This document shows, piece by piece, positions 3,888 through 16,331 of a stretch of DNA of 44,644 nucleotides (positions are counted from its first letter, which is position 1; each line of letters begins with the position of its first letter). This DNA is from an uncultured Clostridia bacterium (lineage in GTDB: Bacteria; Bacillota; Clostridia; TANB77; CAG-508), in NCBI GenBank assembly GCA_944390295.1, contig CALXPV010000003.1, positions 1-44,644 of the forward strand, written 5' to 3'. A program made the position numbers and the translations under genes. Below the pieces are notes generated by a model. The model ran no database searches. It saw only the letters and a list, made by a program, of their open reading frames with translations, and was not told the origin of the DNA.

Positions 3888-5021
3888 ATGAAAAGAGTTG
3901 CTATATTTGGGTCAACAGGTAGTATTGGAACAACTACACTTCGGATAATTAGAGAAAATCCGAAGTTGTTTTCCGCAGTTACATTGGTTGCCGGTAAGAA
4001 TGTGGATCTTTTAATCGAACAGATTAAAGAGTTTCATCCGAGGCATGTTTATATTCAAAGTGTAAGTCATGCTAAAAAATTAGAGAAAATGTTCCCTAAA
4101 CTTGATGTGTATACAGGAGACTGGGGAATAGAAATGATTTCAAAACTTGAAGATGCAGACATTGCCGTATCTGCACTTGTGGGAATTGCTGGTTTAAAAC
4201 CAACCTACAATTTGCTCAAACACTGTAAAGAAGTTGCCCTTGCAAATAAGGAAGTTCTTGTCACTGGAGGAGAGCTGATTATGAAAAGGGCAAGACAGTA
4301 TGGAACAAAGTTACGTACTGTAGATAGTGAGCACAGCGCTATTATGCAGTGCCTAAGAGGAGAAAAGGAAAATGAGATTTCCAAAATTCTACTTACGGCA
4401 TCGGGTGGACCGTTTTTTGACAAGGAGATTACAGATGCTATCACACCAAAAGAAGCACTAAATCATCCGACATGGAAAATGGGACCAAAAGTTACAATAG
4501 ATTCAGCGACAATGATGAATAAGGGATTTGAAGTCATTGAGGCACATTGGCTTTTCGGAGTACCAGAGTCTAAAATTCAGGTTGTTGTTCACAGACAGAG
4601 CCTGGTTCATTCTATGGTCCAGTTTAAAGACGGAACTATTATGGCAAATATTGGACCTAAAGATATGCAAATTCCTATTGCATATGCATTAAATTATCCA
4701 ACAAGGCTGGAAAACAATATTGAACCATTAGATTTGTTTGAAGTGGGAACTTTAAAATTTGAAGAACCAGACTTAGACAAATTCGAATGCTTGAAGCTTG
4801 CATATAAAGCAATAAGTATGGGACATAGTGCTCAAGTTGTTTTAAATGCGGCAGACGAGATTGCTGTTCAGGCTTTTTTAGAAGGAGCAATTAATTTTAC
4901 GCAAATTCCTAAGATGATTGATTGGGCGCTTTCCAATCATATCATAAGAAAGCTTTATACTGTAAATGAGATATTAGACTTAGATCGTACAGTAAGAGCT
5001 GAATGCTTAAGACGAATTTAA
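3888..5021 (+). CDS. dxr: 1-deoxy-D-xylulose-5-phosphate reductoisomerase
   Basis: GSTGSIG, LANKE, VDSEHSA, TASGGPF, HPTWKMGPKVTIDSATMMNKGFEVIEA. Confidence 0.97.
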   Translation: MKRVAIFGSTGSIGTTTLRIIRENPKLFSAVTLVAGKNVDLLIEQIKEFHPRHVYIQSVSHAKKLEKMFPKLDVYTGDWGIEMISKLEDADIAVSALVGIAGLKPTYNLLKHCKEVALANKEVLVTGGELIMKRARQYGTKLRTVDSEHSAIMQCLRGEKENEISKILLTASGGPFFDKEITDAITPKEALNHPTWKMGPKVTIDSATMMNKGFEVIEAHWLFGVPESKIQVVVHRQSLVHSMVQFKDGTIMANIGPKDMQIPIAYALNYPTRLENNIEPLDLFEVGTLKFEEPDLDKFECLKLAYKAISMGHSAQVVLNAADEIAVQAFLEGAINFTQIPKMIDWALSNHIIRKLYTVNEILDLDRTVRAECLRRI

Positions 5022-6113: not shown

Positions 6114-6211
6114 AAGAAAAATTTTGTTTTAAAATTCCTGCTCAAAGTTAAGAGTAGTTTTTATAAATAATAACTTATTAACGATAAAAGCCAATTGGCA
6201 AGGAGGATTGT

Positions 6212-6361
6212 ATGAACAAAATTATTGTAAAAGTAGTTGCGTTGATATGTGTGACAGTGTTAGCAGGACTTATAGCATGTTTTTGCAAGGAATATCTTTT
6301 ATTTGGTTTTATTTTAGAAACAATTGTATTATATTACTGTCTTCACGATATTAACAAATAA
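6212..6361 (+). CDS. Small hydrophobic membrane peptide (49 aa), not in the ORF track
   Basis: AAGGAGG RBS at 6200-6206, ATG 6212; MNKIIVKVVALICVTVLAGLIACFCKEYLLFGFILETIVLYYCLHDINK*. Confidence 0.65.
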   Translation: MNKIIVKVVALICVTVLAGLIACFCKEYLLFGFILETIVLYYCLHDINK

Positions 6362-6369
6362 ACGGGGAA

Positions 6370-6392
6370 GAGGTCGCTAGGTTAGCGACCTC
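6370..6392. repeat. Palindrome / hairpin GAGGTCGCTA-GGT-TAGCGACCTC
   Basis: Perfect 10-bp inverted repeat; shares outer arms GAGGT..ACCTCAA with the hairpin at 7835-7859. Confidence 0.8.
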
Positions 6393-6401
6393 AAAAATAT
6401 T

Positions 6402-6482
6402 TTATAACTCAATCTTAGGCTCATACTTCTTAAGCCACATATTAACCTGGCAAAGGTGAGCCATAAGCTAAGGACCTGTTAT
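6402..6482 (-). pseudogene. Displaced, diverged duplicate of the asnB 3' end (att-like direct repeat of 7878-7958)
   Basis: 70/81 nt identical to 7878-7958 (46/48 over the stop-proximal part); reads ITGP*LMAHLCQVNMWLKKYEPKIEL* versus MTGPQLMAYLCQVNMWLEKYEPKIEI*. Confidence 0.9.
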
Positions 6483-6607
6483 TGGATGTCAGAAATTAAC
6501 ACGAGGTTATATCATTAGAGCGAGTAAGAAAATTCAAAAAGTATAAACATTTTATAAAAATTAATATATTTATTGTGATTACCTAAAATAAATTATAAAA
6601 GGGAGAA

Positions 6608-6766
6608 ATGATGATAAGTAAAAATAACGAAAATGAAGATATAAAAAAGAAATTAAAAGATAATTATAAAGTTATTCGTACATTTAATAAGAATGGACCA
6701 GCTTTCCAAGAAGTTATGGAAAAAATCCTTATTATGAAATTAAATGATTTAGATAAAAATAAATAA
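6608..6766 (+). CDS. Small hypothetical protein (52 aa), not in the ORF track
   Basis: AAGGGAG RBS just upstream; MMISKNNENEDIKKKLKDNYKVIRTFNKNGPAFQEVMEKILIMKLNDLDKNK*; start could be 6608 or 6611. Confidence 0.6.
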   Translation: MMISKNNENEDIKKKLKDNYKVIRTFNKNGPAFQEVMEKILIMKLNDLDKNK

Positions 6767-6777
6767 TAGAAAAAAAC

Positions 6778-6806
6778 TTGACAAATACAAACATATGTTT
6801 TATTAT
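6778..6806 (+). promoter_or_regulatory. Sigma-A promoter of dinD with a LexA-box-like palindrome in the spacer
   Basis: TTGACA(6778-6783)-17 nt-TATTAT(6801-6806); AAACATATGTTT at 6789-6800 resembles Firmicute GAAC-N4-GTTY. Confidence 0.7.
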
Positions 6807-6905
6807 GTGCAATACAGTATATCATAGAAATTATAAAAAATACGAACTATAAAATAAAGAAATAAGTCATACTAACATGTTATTATAAGTAAATTTTGCG
6901 AGGAA

Positions 6906-7778
6906 GTGGTAATTATGGAATTTGAAAAATCTAAGTTGATAGAATTAAAAGAAAAATTTGATTCTATTATCAATACAGAAGAAAAAGAAAATATAGAGTT
7001 TTGGTATGCAAGAGATTTACAGATTCAATTGGGTTATAAAAGATGGGAAAATTTTATTGAAACAATAAAAAAAGCAATGCAATCTTGTGAAAATGTTGGT
7101 ATACCTGTAGAAAATCATTTTCGTGAGGTCACGAAAATGATAAATTTAGCAAAAGGTGCAAAGAGACCAATACAAGACTATATGTTAACGAGATATGCTT
7201 GTTATTTAATTGCTCAAAATGGAGATTCAAAAAAAGAGGAGATTGCATTTGCTCAAACATATTTTGCAGTACAAACTAGAAAACAAGAAATAATTGAGGA
7301 CAGAATAAAATTAATGAATCGATTAGAAGCAAGAGAAAAACTAAAAGAATCTGAAAAGCAGTTATCTAAAAATATTTATGAGAGAGGAGTAGATGATTTA
7401 GGATTTGCAAGAATACGTTCAAAAGGAGATTCGGCATTATTTGGTGGATTAAATACAATGCAAATGAAAGCAAAATATGGAATAAAAGAAAATAGACCTC
7501 TTGCAGATTTTTTACCAACATTAACAATTGCAGCAAAAAATCTGGCAACAGAAATGACGAATTATAACGTAACTGAAAAAGATATGTATGGTGAAGAAAG
7601 TATAGCTGATGAGCATGTGGATAACAACTTAAGTGTAAGAAATATGTTAAATAAAAGAGGTATAAAACCAGAAAATTTAAAACCAGCAGAAGATTTAAAA
7701 AAATTAGAAAGAAGAGTTAAGTCAGAAAGTAAGAAAATAGCTGATAGTAATAAATTGCCTAAAAATGAAGAAAATTAA
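6906..7778 (+). CDS. dinD: DNA damage-inducible protein D (Bro-N-like N-terminus)
   Basis: FWYARDLQ..LGY..WENF, HF.EV.KM, LTRYACYLIAQNGD..K.EIAFAQTYFAVQTR, IRSKGD.ALFGG, RPLADFLPT; true start may be ATG 6915. Confidence 0.92.
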   Translation: MVIMEFEKSKLIELKEKFDSIINTEEKENIEFWYARDLQIQLGYKRWENFIETIKKAMQSCENVGIPVENHFREVTKMINLAKGAKRPIQDYMLTRYACYLIAQNGDSKKEEIAFAQTYFAVQTRKQEIIEDRIKLMNRLEAREKLKESEKQLSKNIYERGVDDLGFARIRSKGDSALFGGLNTMQMKAKYGIKENRPLADFLPTLTIAAKNLATEMTNYNVTEKDMYGEESIADEHVDNNLSVRNMLNKRGIKPENLKPAEDLKKLERRVKSESKKIADSNKLPKNEEN

Positions 7779-7834
7779 ATTGAAACATTTACTAAAATAT
7801 AGGCACTTGAAAGACAAGGTGTTAATATAGCAGA

Positions 7835-7859
7835 TTGAGGTTCCAATTTGGAACCTCAA
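7835..7859. repeat. Palindrome / hairpin TTGAGGTTCCAA-T-TTGGAACCTCAA between convergent dinD and asnB
   Basis: Perfect 12-bp inverted repeat; only weak U-tracts on either side, may also act as a terminator. Confidence 0.8.
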
Positions 7860-7877
7860 GTTTAAAAATTAGATAAA

Positions 7878-9725
7878 TTATATCTCAATCTTAGGCTCAT
7901 ACTTCTCAAGCCACATATTAACCTGACACAAATAAGCCATAAGTTGAGGACCAGTCATTAATTGACCAAACCAAGGTCTAGTAAATGCAGAACCATTAGT
8001 TTCTAAAATTTCTAGAATATACTCTCTATTTAACAAATTATTAATTGGTGCATTTTTATTATTCATAATAACACTAAGCATATCTTTTACTGTTTTTAAG
8101 TAAGTTGGATTATGAGTTTTAGGGTAAGGTGATTTTTTTCTATTTACAATTTCATCAGGTAAAACATCTTTCATAATGTATCTTAGTAAACCTTTTTCAC
8201 GACCTTTATATGCTTTCATTTCCCAAGGAATATTCCAAACATATTCAGCTAATCTATAATCACAGAAAGGAACACGAAGTTCAAATCCGTTATACATACT
8301 CATTCTGTCAGATCTATCTAACAATGTTTGCATAAACCAATTTAATGTTAAATGTGATATTTTTCTTTTTTCAGCAGTTTCTTTTGAATCAATATCTAAA
8401 ATTTCTACATCTGCCAAACTTTCATTATATCTAAAATCAATATAATCTTTTAAATCAATTTTTGAAGATATACTAGGATTTAAAAGGTGCTGTCTTTCTG
8501 AAATTGCAATAGACCAAGGGAAGGTATTGCTATTTAATGCATCATCTCTAAAGAACCAAGGATATCCAGCAAAAATTTCATCAGAACATTCACCACTTAA
8601 ACATACAGTAGCATATGGCTTTACATTTTTACAAAGTAAAAGTAAAGATGAATCAACATCAGCCATACCAGGAGTATCTCGTGCAATCATAGCATCTTCT
8701 AAATATTTTGCTAAATCAGGGGTATCTAAAACTATATTAGTGTGATTTGTTTTAAATTTTTCTACCATTAAATTTATATAATAATTATCAGAGTTTGGTT
8801 GAAAATCACTTTTTACAAAGTTTTTGTCATTATCTACATAGTCAACAGAAAATGTACTAAGTGGTGGTAAATTATTCTTTTTGCAGTATTGGCTAGCATA
8901 TGCCGTAATTATACTAGAATCTAAACCTCCAGATAAAAATACACAAAGTGGTACATCAGAAACTAATTGCTTTTTTATACTATCTTCTAATAAAAATTTA
9001 ATATTATCACATGTTTCAAAAAAAGAATGAGTATGTGGAGCACTTTTTAATTTCCAATATCTATGTGTATGCAAACCATATTTATTAAATATTGCAAAAT
9101 GTGCAGGAGAAAGTTCAAAAATGTTTTTAAATACTGTAGTTCCAGCTGTATGAGCTGGGCCAATTCCAAAAAGTTCACAAAGACCATTTTTGTCAATAAC
9201 TTTTTCTACATCTGGAAATTCAAACAATGCTTTTATTTCAGAAGCAAAAACAAAATTATCATTAAGTAAAGTATAAAATAATGGTTTTATTCCAAAATGA
9301 TCTCTAGCTAAAAATAATTCTTCTTTTTCTTTATTCCAAATAGCAAAAGCAAAAATACCATTAAGATGTTTTACAACATCATATCCATAAAATATAAATG
9401 CTTTTAGCAAAACTTCTGTATCTGAAGTTGTATTAAAAGTAAAGCCATTTTCAATAAGTAAATTTCTAAGTTCAATGCAATTATATATTTGACCATTATA
9501 AACAATAGAATATTCATTTTCATTATATTTTGTAATCATAGGTTGCTTACCACCGATAGGGTCAATTACAATTAATCTTTTGTGTGCCATAAATATTTCA
9601 TCACTAGAATAAATACCTTCTTCATCAGGACCTCTATTCGTTAATGTATCTTTCATATTATTTAAAATATAAGTAGGATTATTTATATTTTTCTTGTAAT
9701 TTGTAAATCCAACAATTCCACACAT
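7878..9725 (-). CDS. asnB: Asparagine synthase (glutamine-hydrolysing), AsnO-like
   Basis: MCGIVG N-terminal Cys, RGPD, YNGQIYN, SDTEV, LSGGLDSS, SGECSDEIFAGY, ELRVPF; AGGAGG RBS. Confidence 0.96.
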   Translation of the reverse strand: MCGIVGFTNYKKNINNPTYILNNMKDTLTNRGPDEEGIYSSDEIFMAHKRLIVIDPIGGKQPMITKYNENEYSIVYNGQIYNCIELRNLLIENGFTFNTTSDTEVLLKAFIFYGYDVVKHLNGIFAFAIWNKEKEELFLARDHFGIKPLFYTLLNDNFVFASEIKALFEFPDVEKVIDKNGLCELFGIGPAHTAGTTVFKNIFELSPAHFAIFNKYGLHTHRYWKLKSAPHTHSFFETCDNIKFLLEDSIKKQLVSDVPLCVFLSGGLDSSIITAYASQYCKKNNLPPLSTFSVDYVDNDKNFVKSDFQPNSDNYYINLMVEKFKTNHTNIVLDTPDLAKYLEDAMIARDTPGMADVDSSLLLLCKNVKPYATVCLSGECSDEIFAGYPWFFRDDALNSNTFPWSIAISERQHLLNPSISSKIDLKDYIDFRYNESLADVEILDIDSKETAEKRKISHLTLNWFMQTLLDRSDRMSMYNGFELRVPFCDYRLAEYVWNIPWEMKAYKGREKGLLRYIMKDVLPDEIVNRKKSPYPKTHNPTYLKTVKDMLSVIMNNKNAPINNLLNREYILEILETNGSAFTRPWFGQLMTGPQLMAYLCQVNMWLEKYEPKIEI

Positions 9726-9865
9726 AAAAACCTCCTAAACCAATTAACATAACATAAAAAATAATAGTTTTTTCTAATTAAATATATGAAAATAAAAATA
9801 AAAAAGTGATTAGAAAATAAAGGAAAAATAAAAGTAAAAAAAATCGAAAATTTGTAAAAAAGTTA

Positions 9866-9894
9866 TTTACTTTTGTCGAAAAGTTATATACAAT
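9866..9894 (+). promoter_or_regulatory. Sigma-A promoter of the GT4 gene containing a consensus Spo0A box
   Basis: TTTACT(9866-9871)-17 nt-TACAAT(9889-9894); TGTCGAA at 9874-9880. Confidence 0.55.
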
Positions 9895-9951
9895 AATATC
9901 AATATTGTTAAAAATACTAAAGAAAATGTGTAGAGAAAGGGGCTTAAACGA

Positions 9952-11244
9952 ATGAAAGTTTTAATGCTAACATGGGAATATCCACCTAGAGTAGTAGGGG
10001 GTATAGCAAGAGTAGTACACGATTTATCTCATAGGTTAATAAAAGATGGCCATGAGGTATCAGTTGTAACTTATAAAGAAGGAAATGTTAAAGATTTTGA
10101 AGATGATAAAGGGGTAAAAGTATATAGAGTAAATAATTATATGATTAATCCAAATAATTTTATAGATTGGATTATGCAATTAAACTTTAACCTTATATCA
10201 AAAGCAACAGAAATAATAAATAAAGAAGGTCCCTTTGATGTAATACACGCCCATGATTGGTTAGTTGCATATGCAGCAAAAACCTTAAAAGATTCTTTTA
10301 AAATACCAGTTGTATCAACAATTCATGCAACGGAATCTGGAAGAAATTCAGGAATACATGATGAAGTACAAAGATATATAAATGATACAGAATGGATGTT
10401 AACATACGAATCTACAGAAGTAATAGTAAATAGTAATTATATGAAAAGCGAATTACAAAGATTATTTGGATTACCATTTGAAAAAATAAATGTGGTTCCA
10501 AATGGTGTTAATTTAAATTTATATAATGGAGTTGAAAGAGACTATAACTTTAGAAGACAATATGCTGCAGATAACGAAAAAATTATTTTATATGTTGGTA
10601 GACTTGTTTATGAAAAAGGAATACAAAATTTAATAGCAGCTATGCCAAAAGTATTAAATTGTTATCATGATTCAAAATTAATAATTGCCGGAAAAGGCGG
10701 AATGATAGATGAATTAAGAGATGAAGTTAGAAGACTTAACATCGAAAATAAAGTTTACTTTACAGGATACTTAAACTTAACACAAGTAACAAAAATGTAT
10801 AAATGTGCAGATGTAGCAGTATTCCCAAGTACATATGAGCCATTTGGTGTTGTAGCATTAGAAGGAATGCTTTCTGGAACACCAGTTGTTGTATCAGATG
10901 TAGGAGGATTAAATGAAATAGTACAACACAGAGAAAATGGAATGAAGAGCTATGCAGGAAATCCAAATTCAATAGCAGATTCTATACTAGAATTATTATT
11001 TAATCCAGGATTATGTGCAGAAGTATCAAAAGCTGCAAAAGCAAAAGTAAAAGCACAATATAATTGGAATAAAATAGCACAAGATACACACTTTATATAT
11101 CAAAAAGCAATTTGTCAAACTATGGCAGAAAAACAAAGAAGAGAAATCGAACAAGAAAAAGCAAAGAAAACAAAGAAAGCAAAAAATACGGAAGGCGAAA
11201 TAACAAACTTATTAAGTTTCAAAAAGAGACATGCATATGCTTAA
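9952..11244 (+). CDS. Glycosyltransferase family 4 (GT-B)
   Basis: WEYPP..VGG, HAHDW, TIHATE, VPNG, YVGRL..EKG, PSTYEPFGVVALEGM. Confidence 0.93.
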   Translation: MKVLMLTWEYPPRVVGGIARVVHDLSHRLIKDGHEVSVVTYKEGNVKDFEDDKGVKVYRVNNYMINPNNFIDWIMQLNFNLISKATEIINKEGPFDVIHAHDWLVAYAAKTLKDSFKIPVVSTIHATESGRNSGIHDEVQRYINDTEWMLTYESTEVIVNSNYMKSELQRLFGLPFEKINVVPNGVNLNLYNGVERDYNFRRQYAADNEKIILYVGRLVYEKGIQNLIAAMPKVLNCYHDSKLIIAGKGGMIDELRDEVRRLNIENKVYFTGYLNLTQVTKMYKCADVAVFPSTYEPFGVVALEGMLSGTPVVVSDVGGLNEIVQHRENGMKSYAGNPNSIADSILELLFNPGLCAEVSKAAKAKVKAQYNWNKIAQDTHFIYQKAICQTMAEKQRREIEQEKAKKTKKAKNTEGEITNLLSFKKRHAYA

Positions 11245-11256
11245 GGAGGCTAAAAC

Positions 11257-11592
11257 ATGAATATATATGATACAGCAAATAAATTAGCTGCAGAAATAAA
11301 ACAAACAGACGAATTTAACAATTATAAAAAATCAAAAGAAGAATTACAAAGAAATGCAGATGTAAAAGCAAAAATAGATGAATTTGATAAACTTAGAGTA
11401 GAGATGCAAAAAGCTATGATAAAAGGTGAGCAAAATTCTAACGAGTTAAGTGTTAAATTACAAAATATGTATGCAGAATTATATCAAAATGAAATAGCTA
11501 AAAATTATTTGGAATCAGAAATGAGATTTAGTGTTATGGTTACAGATATAAACAAAATTATAAGTGAAGCTATAAAAGATGTTATAAACTAA
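11257..11592 (+). CDS. YlbF/YheA/YmcA-family regulator
   Basis: NIYDTANKLA.EIK...EF N-terminus; helical 111 aa; C-term YL.SE.RF...DINKII. Confidence 0.85.
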   Translation: MNIYDTANKLAAEIKQTDEFNNYKKSKEELQRNADVKAKIDEFDKLRVEMQKAMIKGEQNSNELSVKLQNMYAELYQNEIAKNYLESEMRFSVMVTDINKIISEAIKDVIN

Positions 11593-12429: not shown

Positions 12430-14118
12430 ATGATAAAAAAATGGGAAATTTATGATTCTAACGAACAAAAAGTAAAAGAAATATGTGAGAAGTATAATTT
12501 AAATAAAATAATAGGAAAAATAATTGTAAATAGAAATGTAACTAGTGATGAAGATGTTAGAATTTTTATAACACCAACAAGAGATGATTTTCACGATCCA
12601 TTTTTATTTAAAGGAATGGATATAGCAGTAGATAGAATTTTACAAGCAATAAACAATAAAGAAAAGATTCTTATATATGGTGACTATGATGTTGATGGTA
12701 TTACAAGTACAACAGTTTTAAAAAAATATCTTCAAGAAAGAGGTGGAATAGTAAACACATATATTCCAAATAGATTAAATGAAGGTTATGGATTAAATAA
12801 AGAAGCTATTAAAAAAATAAAAGAAATGGGAACAGATTTAATTATAACTGTAGATTGTGGAATCTCAGGAATAGAAGAAGTAAAATATGCAAAAGAATTA
12901 GGAATAGAAGTTATAGTAACAGACCATCACGAAGTAGGAGAAGTTTTACCAGATGCTTTAGCAGTAATTGATGCAAAAAGAAAAGATAATACATATCCAT
13001 TTAATTTACTTGCAGGAGTAGGAGTTGTATTTAAGGTAATTCAAGCTATATCAATAAAATTAAATTTAAAAGCAGAAGAATATTTAAAATATCTTGATTT
13101 AGTATGTGTCGGAACAATTTCAGATATTGTGCCACTAGAAGGAGAAAACAGAACTATAGCAAAACTTGGACTTATGCTAATAAGAGTAACAAAGAACTTA
13201 GGTTTAAGAGAATTAATTAAAAGTTCTGGATATAAAGAAATTGATTCTAATACTATTTCTTTTGGAGTAGCACCTCGTATTAATGCATGTGGTAGAATGG
13301 GACACGAAGAAGAGGCATTAAAGTTATTTCTAGCAGAAACAAAAGAAGAAGCAGTAGAAGTAACTAAAAAGTTAAATGAATATAATACATTAAGACAAAA
13401 TACAGAAAAAGCTATATACGAAGATGCTGTTAGAAAAATTGAAAAAGAAAATATAGAAAATAAAAATTCTATAGTAGTTGGAGGATATAATTGGCATCAT
13501 GGAGTTATAGGAATTGTTTCTTCAAAAGTGACAGAAAAATATTATAAACCAAGTATATTATTATGTTTTGAAGATGGAATAGCAAAAGGTTCAGGAAGAA
13601 GTATACAAGGATTTGATTTATATGAGGGACTTACAAAATGTAGTGAGTTTTTAGACAAATTTGGTGGACACGCAATGGCAGTAGGTCTTACATTAATTAA
13701 AGAAAATTTTGAAAATTTCAAAGATAAATTCGAAAAAATAGCAGAAGAAGCAAACATAAAAGAAATGGTACCAACTATATACATAGATGAAGAAATAAAG
13801 TTAAAAGATATAAGTATGGATCTAGTAAAAAGTTTATCTGTATTGGAACCTTTTGGAGAAGCAAATAAAGTACCATTATTCTTAATAAAAAACTTAAAAA
13901 TAGATTCAATAAGAGCTTTGTCAGAAGGAAGACATTTAAAATTGAGTTTGAGAGATGAAAGTGTTGTTATAAATGCAATTGGATTTGATATAGGAAATCT
14001 AGCAGAAGAATACAAGATTGGAGATAAAATAGATGTTGTAGGAACATTAGAAATTAATAGCTTTAATGGATTTAGTTCTATTCAAATAAACATAAAGGAT
14101 ATAAGAAAAAGCTATTAA
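12430..14118 (+). CDS. recJ: Single-stranded-DNA-specific exonuclease RecJ
   Basis: YGDYDVDG, TVDCG, TDHH, GTISD, PRINACGR, GSGRS, GGH. Confidence 0.97.
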   Translation: MIKKWEIYDSNEQKVKEICEKYNLNKIIGKIIVNRNVTSDEDVRIFITPTRDDFHDPFLFKGMDIAVDRILQAINNKEKILIYGDYDVDGITSTTVLKKYLQERGGIVNTYIPNRLNEGYGLNKEAIKKIKEMGTDLIITVDCGISGIEEVKYAKELGIEVIVTDHHEVGEVLPDALAVIDAKRKDNTYPFNLLAGVGVVFKVIQAISIKLNLKAEEYLKYLDLVCVGTISDIVPLEGENRTIAKLGLMLIRVTKNLGLRELIKSSGYKEIDSNTISFGVAPRINACGRMGHEEEALKLFLAETKEEAVEVTKKLNEYNTLRQNTEKAIYEDAVRKIEKENIENKNSIVVGGYNWHHGVIGIVSSKVTEKYYKPSILLCFEDGIAKGSGRSIQGFDLYEGLTKCSEFLDKFGGHAMAVGLTLIKENFENFKDKFEKIAEEANIKEMVPTIYIDEEIKLKDISMDLVKSLSVLEPFGEANKVPLFLIKNLKIDSIRALSEGRHLKLSLRDESVVINAIGFDIGNLAEEYKIGDKIDVVGTLEINSFNGFSSIQINIKDIRKSY

Positions 14119-14132
14119 AAGGGGGGACATAT

Positions 14133-16331
14133 ATGTCAGAAGTAAAAAATAAAACGATTGAAGATATAATTAGTTTAGTTAAACAAAAAAAGAGATGGCC
14201 AGATACAAAGATTATTTTAAAAGCGTATAACTATGCTAAAGAAAAACATGGGACTCAATGTAGAAAATCTGGAGAGCCATATATAATACATCCGCTTCAA
14301 GTAGCTTATATTTTAGCAGATATAGGATTAGATGAAGCAACAATTTGTGCAGCCTTATTACATGATGTAGTAGAAGATACAGAAGTAACTCATGATGACC
14401 TAGTAAGGGATTTTGGAGAAGAGATTGCAAATATGGTTGCAGGTGTTACTAAACTTGGCGAATTAAAATATCAAGCAAGTACAGAAGAAAGACAAGTAGA
14501 AAATTACAGAAAAATGTTTCTTGCTATGGGTAAAGATATTAGAGTAATTATAATAAAGCTTGCAGATAGATTGCATAATTTACGTACATTAAAATATTTA
14601 AGAAGAGATAGACAAATTGCAAATGCTAAAGAAACAATGGAATTATATGCACCTCTTGCAAACCGTTTAGGTATATATTCTTTAAAATGGGAACTAGAGG
14701 ATTTGGCATTTAAATATTTATACCCAGAAGAATATAGAGAATTAGTAGAAGGCATAAATAAAAAGAGAGAAGAAAGATTAAAATTTATAGAAAAAATAAT
14801 GGATGACATTAGGGGCTCACTAAAGAAACAAAGAATAGAAGCAGAAGTTACAGGTAGAGCAAAACATTTATATTCAATTTATAGAAAAATGAAAAGAGAT
14901 AATAAAACATTAGATCAAATATATGATTTATTTGCTTTACGTATATTAGTAAATTCTGTAAAAGATTGTTATGCAGCTTTAGGTGTAGTTCACGAAATGT
15001 ATAGTCCAATGCCTGGAAGATTTAAAGATTATATAGCAGTTCCAAAACCTAATATGTATCAATCTATACATACTACATTATTAGGAGAAAAAGGAACACC
15101 ATTTGAAGTTCAAATACGTACTTGGGAAATGCACAGAATTGCAGAATATGGTATTGCTGCACACTGGGCATATAAAGAAGCAAATTATGGAAAAAAAGGA
15201 AAACAAGTAGTATCTGTTACAACAGACAAATTAGCATGGCTTAGAGAAACACTAGAATGGCAACAAGATATGAAAGATCCACAAGAATTTTTAAATACAT
15301 TAAAAACAGAATTATTTGAAGATGAAGTTTATGTATTTACACCAAAAGGAAAAATTCTTGTACTTCCAAGAGATGCAACTCCAATAGATTTCGCTTATTC
15401 GATTCACGAAGAGATTGGAAACCATATGGTTGGATGTAAAATAAATAGTAAAATGATGCCAATTATTACTAAACTACAAAGTGGTGATATTATAGAGATA
15501 ATGACATCAGATTCTCAAAAAGGACCAAGTAGAGATTGGCTTAAATTTATAAAAACAACTAAAGCTAAAAGCAAAATTCAATCATGGTTTAAAAAAGCTC
15601 AAAGATCTGAAAATATAGAAAAAGGGAAAGATTTAATAGAAAAAGAAATAAAAAGAATTGGAATGAGCTATGATGAATTGTTTAAACAAGAATATTTAAA
15701 TGCAGCATTAGATAGATATAAATTTAAAAATGCAGAAGATATGTATGCTAGTGTTGGTTTTGGTGCGATTTCACAAGTAAAAATAATTTCTAGAATGTTA
15801 GAAGAGTACAGAAAAAATCATAATGAAGAAAATATAGAACAAAAAATAGAAGAACTAACAAGTAAAAGGAAACACTCAAAACCTTCACCAACAGGTGTTG
15901 TTGTAAAAGGAATAGATAATTGTTTAGTAAAACTTTCAAAGTGTTGTAATCCAGTACCTGGAGATAATATTATAGGTTATATTACAAAAGGAAGAGGAGT
16001 TTCTGTACATAGAACTGATTGTGTAAATGTAAAAGATTTATTAAAAGAAGAAGATAAAATTATAGATGTTTATTGGTATACAGAAGAACAAGCTTCTTAC
16101 AATGTAGATATAAGCATCTATGCTAATGACAGAGATGGTTTACTTGCAGATGTAATACAAGTTCTTAATAAGTTAAAAACAAAATTAATGGCACTAAATT
16201 CAAAAACAACTAGAGAACATATTGCAACTATAGATGTTACACTTGAAGTAGTAAATATAGAAGAATTAAATAAAATTTTAAAAGAGTTAAGAAAAATTGA
16301 TAGTGTTTATGAAGTAACAAGAAAAAAATAA
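14133..16331 (+). CDS. relA: Bifunctional (p)ppGpp synthetase/hydrolase Rel
   Basis: RKSGEPY, LLHDVVED (HD), KLADRLHN, GRAKHLYSIYRKM, YQSIHT, EVQIRT, TGS (FTPKG, TPIDFAY), CC..P/HR..C, ACT. Confidence 0.97.
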   Translation: MSEVKNKTIEDIISLVKQKKRWPDTKIILKAYNYAKEKHGTQCRKSGEPYIIHPLQVAYILADIGLDEATICAALLHDVVEDTEVTHDDLVRDFGEEIANMVAGVTKLGELKYQASTEERQVENYRKMFLAMGKDIRVIIIKLADRLHNLRTLKYLRRDRQIANAKETMELYAPLANRLGIYSLKWELEDLAFKYLYPEEYRELVEGINKKREERLKFIEKIMDDIRGSLKKQRIEAEVTGRAKHLYSIYRKMKRDNKTLDQIYDLFALRILVNSVKDCYAALGVVHEMYSPMPGRFKDYIAVPKPNMYQSIHTTLLGEKGTPFEVQIRTWEMHRIAEYGIAAHWAYKEANYGKKGKQVVSVTTDKLAWLRETLEWQQDMKDPQEFLNTLKTELFEDEVYVFTPKGKILVLPRDATPIDFAYSIHEEIGNHMVGCKINSKMMPIITKLQSGDIIEIMTSDSQKGPSRDWLKFIKTTKAKSKIQSWFKKAQRSENIEKGKDLIEKEIKRIGMSYDELFKQEYLNAALDRYKFKNAEDMYASVGFGAISQVKIISRMLEEYRKNHNEENIEQKIEELTSKRKHSKPSPTGVVVKGIDNCLVKLSKCCNPVPGDNIIGYITKGRGVSVHRTDCVNVKDLLKEEDKIIDVYWYTEEQASYNVDISIYANDRDGLLADVIQVLNKLKTKLMALNSKTTREHIATIDVTLEVVNIEELNKILKELRKIDSVYEVTRKK

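Follow-up and report, generated by a model that had tools for sequence, protein, structure and literature searches.

Why should the 3' end of a conserved housekeeping gene be present twice, in direct orientation, on either side of a short stretch of DNA that encodes no recombinase? We investigated this question in an uncultured Clostridia bacterium (assembly GCA_944390295.1, hereafter G000), a 1.5-Mb metagenome-assembled genome (MAG) of 113 contigs with 88.8% completeness, using positions 1 to 44,644 of contig CALXPV010000003.1 (contig C3; this whole stretch is hereafter the window). Here, a second copy of the last 82 nt of asnB, the gene for glutamine-hydrolysing asparagine synthase, is separated from asnB itself by a single annotated cargo gene, dinD. 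We consider it likely that positions 6484-7958 are a non-autonomous cassette, situated at the attachment site (attB) of integrative, probably conjugative, elements that carry paired large serine recombinases (LSRs) and integrate inside asnB. As read from its sequence, the cassette would begin with a left-end module and the small gene orf52, continue with dinD behind a promoter that has a LexA-like box, and close with a hairpin and an asnB 3' end that came from a former host.

The target gene asnB lies on the minus strand at 7878-9725 and encodes 615 aa with matches to Asn_synthase and GATase_7 in Pfam and to TIGR01536. A repeat search recovered an 87-nt direct repeat, 6397-6483 and 7873-7959, with 85% identity and a spacing of 1476 nt, and upon global alignment its asnB part (6402-6483 against 7878-7959) was identical at 71 of 82 positions. 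This bears out the sequence-only reading from which the analysis started, in which the last ~81 nt of asnB had been seen twice, 1476 nt apart, with 70 of 81 positions identical. The copy at 7878-7959 (minus strand) completes the 615-aa open reading frame (ORF) and is the end in use, whereas the copy at 6402-6483 (minus strand) is displaced, non-functional and interrupted by an in-frame TAG. The latter translates as PITGP, a stop, LMAHLCQVNMWLKKYEPKIEL and a further stop, and the true end as LMTGPQLMAYLCQVNMWLEKYEPKIEI followed by its stop; the translations agree with the earlier observation that the distal copy has gained a TAG and that its Thr, Leu and Cys changes are synonymous. Both junctions of the insert, 6483/6484 and 7958/7959, are bridged by contigs in 4/4 independent chicken-gut runs from four studies. 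In the contigs of these runs, neither a cassette circle junction nor an unambiguous empty-site join was seen. One X13 contig joins 6473 to 7953 with four other letters between and a side of 33 nt; it is maybe an empty-site allele or the asnB of a related species, and we did not count it as evidence.

A palindrome had also been noticed past each of the two stops, and both of them fold stably. The hairpin past the displaced asnB end (6370-6392) reaches -17 kcal/mol on both strands and the one past the functional asnB (7835-7859), which differs from it, -16 kcal/mol, with z of about -5 to -6 and 0/200 shuffles folding as well. The first is the former asnB-downstream hairpin of the host, and the second came in together with the cassette. 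Most true asnB stops in the genus, those at insert-free sites among them, are followed by similar GAGGT...ACCTC hairpins whose stems show compensatory changes. There is no T tract at either hairpin and a terminator scan of the region returned 0 sites, and we therefore do not claim them as intrinsic terminators. The Rfam search of 6200-8000 gave only two sub-threshold, snoRNA-like chance matches, so that the conserved module is not a known RNA family. Finally, family scans of 6370-7958 found no recombinase ORF, with orf52 and dinD being the only ORFs there, as the sequence-only reading had stated.

Next, we compared the locus across related genomes, which are cited below by G numbers, and their loci or contigs by L numbers. 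A DNA search covered 60 relatives, and ~14 kb downstream of asnB was taken from 33 of them and oriented as in the window. A displaced asnB end is present in at least 10 of 34 genomes (G000 included), with an eleventh, in G015, on a separate contig, and many relatives have extra asnB-end copies downstream of asnB. The stretch downstream of asnB varies greatly between genomes. The empty sites that the sequence-only reading had called for exist as well: in G002 only 64 nt separate the end of dxr from the asnB stop, and in G011 and G035 the end of mutS is 62-75 nt from that stop. The site is thus found in both occupied and empty alleles. The most direct comparison is between G023 and G001, which have a common left flank (a sigma factor, a 263-aa gene and an ORF6N gene) and where G023 equals G001 plus a cassette of 1863 bp containing orf52, dinD and a NUDIX gene. 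The displaced end and hairpin of G023 are almost identical to the true end of the cassette-free G001, and it follows that the displaced copy is the native one and that the end in use came with the insert. This is what the sequence-only reading had proposed, namely that an incoming element supplied a replacement 3' end and displaced the old one. By the same comparison, the end in use in the window (7878-7959) is presumably donor-derived, and the native end at 6402-6483 appears to be a displaced and now decaying pseudogene fragment. The outermost asnB-end copies in L055 (8383-8429), L067 (485-535) and L134 (8101-8142) are cut after 42-51 nt and are without the junction motif described below; these truncated copies may represent old junctions that have decayed, or else junctions of a second type.

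The displaced copies have a common junction. In all full-length copies, asnB homology is lost at the same base, 82 nt from the stop, and is followed by TTGGNTGTCAGAAANNAACAC. Across 60 distinct loci, counted after dropping six duplicates and comprising 48 true ends, 31 junctions and 10 truncated or degenerate copies, the 31 junctions between an asnB end and the motif occur in 27 genomes of several genera (32 junctions with a looser motif filter). In the window, the motif (GGATGTCAGAAATTAACACGAGG..., plus strand) occupies 6484-6508 and is unique in G000. When 301 genomes of the family were scanned, the motif pattern had 12 matches in 11 genomes, compared with 1 for the reversed control, and 12/12 adjoin an asnB-end copy. 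Conservation after the junction is strongest over ~25 nt, beyond which four module subtypes appear that cut across genera; the left-end module as a whole, which is common to cassettes and to the conjugative element described below, covers 6484-6607 on the plus strand and was aligned over 11 junctions. Furthermore, an alignment of orf52 relatives, used as the query against 185,579 species genomes, returned 23 loci, all of them in MAGs of uncultured gut Clostridia, and 20 of these have a copy of the asnB end immediately upstream of orf52. The other three are L122, with the motif and no detectable asnB end, L124, where the contig starts inside orf52, and L127, where the nearest copy is 4.5 kb off. 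At L127:9805-9880 a motif of this type, without a preceding asnB end, stands ~12 nt before the hairpin and the true asnB end, and resembles a deletion joint or a 'micro' unit. Among viruses, 21 matches to the motif were found in IMG/VR, with 0 having an asnB-like flank, so that no attP was detected on phage there.

Upon examining what lies between the motif junction and asnB in other genomes, we observed that the same frame carries alternative cargo, for which the earlier note had suggested looking. The cargo includes DinD, ORF6N, Abi_2, an AAA_21 ATPase with Bro-N, NUDIX and HD hydrolases, a five-gene set with a thymidylate-kinase-like gene and NADAR, a lysyl-tRNA synthetase, a DUF6036 pair, a DEAD helicase and GH3. 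All annotated cargo genes are on the plus strand, co-oriented with each other and convergent with asnB, and no tyrosine- or serine-recombinase family was matched by those cargo ORFs between motif junction and asnB that were scanned. Unit lengths range from 1158 to 6420 bp, with arrays of up to four units (L135), and L135 contains two dinD units in tandem. In genomes where the identity of asnB is 72-79%, that of the dinD DNA is 84-95%, for example 95% versus 78% in L127 and 92% versus 79% in L124, while in L116 the module is 94% and orf52 93% identical against 77% for asnB. As divergence between genera is much smaller in the cassette DNA than in asnB, these comparisons indicate horizontal spread of cassettes between genera. 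Two cargo genes stand apart. An IS110-family transposase of 432 aa (DEDD_Tnp_IS110 and Transposase_20) at L121:10311-11606 directly follows orf52, in the usual place of dinD; it is the only transposase among the scanned cargo, and represents either an insertion sequence that landed in a cassette or a different sort of cargo. One cassette contains a full class II lysyl-tRNA-synthetase-like gene (tRNA-synt_2 and anticodon OB) (L055 of G008, 9829-11301 as oriented; L129:8165-9637).

An integrase-bearing element at the same site, another of the things the sequence-only reading had pointed to, is represented by LSR-bearing DNA in G336 and on the metagenome contigs L179 and L180. In G336, the asnB body stops matching exactly at the junction and is followed by the inverted motif, with no asnB end; beyond the inverted motif are two LSR genes, of 513 and 492 aa (Resolvase, Recombinase, Zn_ribbon_recom), and then a resolvase fragment. 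A metagenome scan with the 513-aa LSR returned two close relatives only, with 71% and 63% identity, on L179 and L180, and in both contigs the LSR is followed by the same inverted motif abutting an asnB truncated near residue 590, at the same base as in G336. LSRs of the 513-aa type are therefore located at this asnB base in 3/3 cases (one MAG and two metagenome contigs), and the tandem pair of 492 and 513 aa is present in G336 and L179. The motif is thus one arm of an inverted pair flanking LSR-bearing DNA. The fourth junction of the G336 array (locus L135) leads into HTH_36, PrgI, a VirB4/TraG-like ATPase, a type IV secretion system pilin, a sortase and a SpaA adhesin, and the same gene run also has a coupling protein and a Gp3-like recombination directionality factor (RDF). 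The element's left ~130 nt in G336 match the left ends of three resident cassettes. From these sequences, a full element appears to have inserted at exactly that junction of an already present array which is nearest to asnB. AsnB lacks its last ~25 residues where the full element sits (G336:C16:13894-15640, L179 and L180), and in G336 it has a short unrelated tail read from the element end.

Because the inverted motif stands beside LSR genes at the same asnB base, we read the motif at 6484-6508 as the P' half of an LSR attP. The half-site of a serine integrase is described as ~25 nt long (PMC3783163), and the motif and its mirror image, at two kinds of junction and conserved over ~25 nt, show what appears to be the pattern of such half-sites. 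Five nucleotides (TCATT) are common to the attL-type, attR-type and attB sequences. In the window, this overlap region of the putative strand exchange is at 6479-6483, where it reads TTATT, while TCATT is present in most copies and at 7955-7959; the exact crossover dinucleotide would lie within these 5 nt. Accordingly labelled, the asnB-end and motif junction at 6402-6508 would be attL-type (B-O-P'), with the displaced end forming its B arm side, the junction of mirror motif and asnB body would be attR-type (P-O-B'), and the right boundary of the cassette at 7955-7960 would be a regenerated attB (B-O-B'). The complete regenerated attB (B arm, TCATT, B' arm) would cover 7935-7984, inside asnB and 82 nt before its stop, as delimited with G336, L179 and L180. 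The sequence-only reading had compared the locus with islands at tRNA or guaA 3' ends. The displacement part of that comparison holds, whereas the tyrosine-integrase type that it implies does not, an LSR attP half-site being what stands at the junction.

How could a cassette that lacks a recombinase have reached this position? In the mechanism that we propose, which needs no other than canonical serine-recombinase reactions, a full element would integrate at attB beside a resident cassette, would then excise via the outer attL and take along the cassette with the former host's asnB end, the composite would integrate in a new host, and the element would leave by the inner attL. The predicted remainder, host end / P' - cargo - hairpin - donor end / asnB, would be exactly the arrangement in the window. 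The regenerated attB would let new elements dock again next to asnB and, attB being regenerated, stacks of up to four cassettes would arise, with the oldest furthest from asnB. Such a route would be one of accretion and cis-mobilisation, by analogy with cis-mobilisable elements (CIMEs) and composite islands of the staphylococcal cassette chromosome (SCC) type. CIMEs and accretion have already been described (PMC5704250, PMC7563491), and so have ccr-less and composite SCC elements (PMC13739063). By itself the cassette is probably immobile, and no LSR gene is present in G000. The sequence-only reading had left two options, a decayed island or a minimal class of cassette mobilised in trans or by recombination. 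As it shares the left end of the element, the cassette would more readily be taken for a derivative of a conventional large element than for a minimal class of its own.

Several observations weigh against this explanation. The conjugation genes (C1) and the LSR end (C16) of G336 are on different contigs, and C1 continues into genes of chromosomal appearance (spo0A) and lacks this type of LSR, although the two parts would be the two ends of one element. There are only three attR-type junctions, none of them in a genome known to belong to the genus of G000, and the best 30 LSR homologues of the family reach no more than 47% identity, with none flanking asnB. The attR-type pattern, with 3 mismatches allowed, was found in 101 genomes around G336 only in G336 itself, and in the 301 family genomes the P-arm pattern had 10 matches, fewer than the control, with none beside asnB, which leaves 0 attR-type junctions there. 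In canonical LSR recombination, exchange takes place at a 2-bp crossover and a long repeat is not needed. Such recombination does not predict cassettes that own an asnB end. Since asnB is truncated by the autonomous element, which has no asnB end at its recombinase side, the 82-nt end and the hairpin would not be expected in a derivative that arose from it by simple deletion. The cassette parts beyond the ~25-nt half-site and the ~130-nt left module, including the asnB end, were not found in the G336 element. Furthermore, the right boundary of the cassette is attB-type and not attR-type, so that the cassette alone is without a canonical excision pair. Additionally, the true and displaced ends are identical at 81 of 82 positions in G010 and L092, which fits homologous exchange or gene conversion as well as recent transfer within a lineage. 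Three candidate origins may be named for the first asnB end: asnB-downstream DNA captured once an element had integrated at secondary sites, mending of the truncated gene with incoming asnB DNA through a single illegitimate joint, or a non-canonical reaction between attL-type and attB sites.

The last of these would make the cassettes mobile in trans, with the LSR pair of a visiting element recombining the asnB-end and motif site of a cassette circle (B-O-P') with attB (B-O-B') in an integron-like manner. The observed structure would be the exact product, with an attL-type site away from asnB and an attB beside it, the 82-nt end would be explained without extra steps, and the paired LSRs are reminiscent of CcrAB. 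The ~25-nt half-site also stays intact in every cassette while the adjoining asnB fragment decays, but this is equally expected if attL serves only the excision of composites. The serine integrases studied so far, as covered in PMC3783163, recombine only attP with attB, or attL with attR together with an RDF; other site pairings are not recombined by them, and attL is auto-inhibited. A circular form was not observed, nor is there an LSR in G000, and we regard mobilisation in trans as rather unlikely. If it were true, the cassettes would be genuine mobile units, using a site pairing that is not known for serine integrases. The absence of an LSR from G000 suits an account in which homologous recombination does everything: a circle with cargo and an asnB 3' fragment would integrate Campbell-style via 82-120 nt, and the motif would be a functionless relic of an ancient element end. 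True and displaced ends are at times nearly identical (81/82), the differences of the G023 copy are confined to its stop-proximal half, and the tandem dinD cassettes of L135 resemble unequal crossing-over. Homologous recombination between the 82-nt repeats surely adds deletions and duplications; it cannot account for mirror-image half-sites beside LSRs. An account by homologous recombination only leaves unexplained why, at one and the same asnB base, the motif mirrors the sequence next to LSR genes, why the array junction nearest to asnB is precisely where a full element has docked, and why just ~25 nt are conserved over four module subtypes, and it appears to us improbable as the whole explanation.

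In a third account, asnB was partially duplicated once in an ancestor and the copies were inherited vertically, often lost and homogenised by gene conversion, with a hot spot between them. The displaced and true ends within a genome are more alike than the ends of other genomes, as such homogenisation would give. However, genera resemble each other much more in cassette DNA than in asnB, G001 and G023 form a presence/absence pair with identical flanks, arrays reach four units with different cargo, and there is a link to LSR elements, which together make a single ancient duplication a disfavoured and very improbable reading. As for an error of assembly, an objection that the sequence-only reading had itself raised, G000 is a MAG in 113 contigs, and repeats often break or mis-join assemblies, with the contigs of G014, G015 and G021 ending at the repeat. 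That both junctions are bridged in all four independent runs, and that the same architecture is found in 27 genomes, excludes this objection and leaves an artefact with practically no credibility.

We next compared the cassettes, read as derivatives of LSR elements, with known systems. They resemble CIMEs, for example the islands related to ICESt1 and ICESt3 at the fda 3' end in streptococci, in being small (1.2-13 kb there, 1.2-6.4 kb here), in having cargo without recombination or transfer genes, in being located at the 3' end of a housekeeping gene with bounding repeats that include the gene end, and in forming tandem stacks with the oldest unit furthest from the target and a full integrative and conjugative element docked on an array, which is here the case in G336 and not in G000 (PMC5704250, PMC7563491). 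The CIMEs described in these sources belong to tyrosine-integrase systems, both of their att sites share an identity segment and the autonomous element restores the gene (PMC5704250, PMC7563491). Here, in contrast, the recombinases are LSRs, the autonomous element truncates asnB and the gene-proximal boundary is attB-type, so that the cassettes do not have the attL and attR pair by which CIMEs are defined. With the SCCmec, SCC and ECC elements that carry CcrAB, the locus shares a tandem LSR pair and a target in the 3' part of a conserved housekeeping gene, as well as cassette arrays that are separated by att repeats, many of them without recombinase (ccr-less 'SCI' or pseudo-SCC), with the outermost first and with variable cargo (PMC13739063, PMC6222049). 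It differs from SCC, as described in the same sources, in the target (asnB and not rlmH), in the overlap (TCATT in place of the TATCATAA core) and in a repeat of 82 nt with a hairpin compared with ~15-50 bp (PMC13739063, PMC6222049). The likeness to SCC is one of LSR pairing, to which orthology with CcrA or CcrB may or may not correspond. Elements with conjugation genes are involved here, whereas SCC elements are not known to be self-transmissible.

Serine-integrase sites of the A118/phiC31 type provide a further parallel: the element ends are ~25-nt imperfect inverted repeats with a recombinase gene beside one end, few bases are common to all four sites, and the element has a gene for a Gp3-like RDF (PMC3783163). 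Unlike the systems described there, the cassettes are surrounded by a long direct repeat (PMC3783163). Integron cassettes are similar in being promoter-poor or single-gene, co-oriented, stacked at one site and each followed by an imperfect palindrome; unlike integrons, the locus has no intI and neither an attI nor an attC core, empty sites possess the hairpin too, and the junction is set by an LSR half-site. Finally, in the skin-like or gin gene-intervening elements a full element likewise interrupts a coding sequence and is bounded by LSR sites, whereas the gene is restored there by developmentally timed excision (PMC5595907), and nothing of that kind is indicated here.

What began as an unexplained repeat can thus be described as a defined site, with an attB inside asnB and attL- and attR-type junctions, probably used by paired-LSR elements of uncultured gut Clostridia. 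We found no description of asnB as such an attachment site in the full-text literature, a coverage that leaves subscription journals outside. The locus is a recurrent landing pad whose cargo resembles defence or regulatory genes (DinD/Bro-N, ORF6N, Abi_2 and AAA_21 ATPases), and its simple signature in the sequence allows such cassettes to be recognised in metagenomes. A mechanistic question arises as well, as an LSR system normally leaves no long repeat, yet each of these cassettes carries 82 nt of the target gene; the answer would reveal either a novel way of capturing genes through accretion or a new pairing of sites. Moreover, serine integrases with a mapped natural attB would be useful leads for genome engineering.

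Turning to the contents of the cassette, the first gene, orf52 (6608-6766, plus strand), is a 52-aa ORF that belongs to the cassette's left module and has 15 invariant positions in alignment A2. It had no Pfam match even at E 10, and an Atlas features search gave only 0.80 matches to unnamed clusters. The cargo gene dinD (DNA damage-inducible protein D, Bro-N) is at 6906-7778 on the plus strand, with its true start likely at the ATG at 6915; its product matches NF008573 with 357.7 bits (cut-off 242; E 4.5e-107) over residues 11-281. The promoter-like site for dinD, TTGACA-17-TATTAT at 6778-6806 on the plus strand, agrees with the consensus at 11/12 positions and is the best of the region. The dinD upstream region is homologous to that before dinD, ORF6N and AAA_21 cargo in other genomes. 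The sequence-only reading had named an SOS-type promoter here. The promoter itself is supported by this site, while the SOS label is weaker: the degenerate LexA-type box at 6789-6800, inside the spacer of the promoter, departs from GAAC-N4-GTTC at 2 positions, and boxes of this grade are not enriched in the window (77 found versus 94.6 expected), so that the one at 6789-6800 is not significant alone. The homologous cassettes have boxes closer to the LexA-type consensus than that of the window, LexA is encoded in G000, and dinD may be under SOS control. One extra A behind 6818, between the promoter-like site and the dinD start, is present in all four chicken-gut runs and reflects either a difference between strains or an error of the window's sequence in a homopolymer.

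No serine recombinase (PF00239) was matched in the genome of G000, at its completeness of 88.8%. No tyrosine recombinase (PF00589) was found near asnB in G000, G008, G010, G021, G023 and G032, and no serine recombinase (PF00239) near asnB in G000, G008, G010, G023 and G032. The tyrosine recombinases of all six genomes, G000 and G021 included, and the serine recombinases of G008, G010, G023 and G032 lie away from asnB. A site of the Xer/dif type was considered and dropped upon inspection by eye.

Variation was also observed in the flank beyond the cassette and in asnB itself. In the window, dxr (3888-5021) lies between a flavodoxin-like gene and asnB, as it does in G003, G014 and others, whereas it is missing from that interval in G001, G006, G007, G012, G017, G020 and G023, which have a sigma-70-like gene and the 263-aa gene instead; in G004, dxr is split into two ORFs. 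At L059 (G033), 13884-15100, asnB is matched in three frames, a possible pseudogene or assembly error. Finally, G009 has two asnB-like genes on different contigs (L051 and L076), which are ~84% and 79% identical to the asnB of the window over the 3'-terminal 1123 nt compared.

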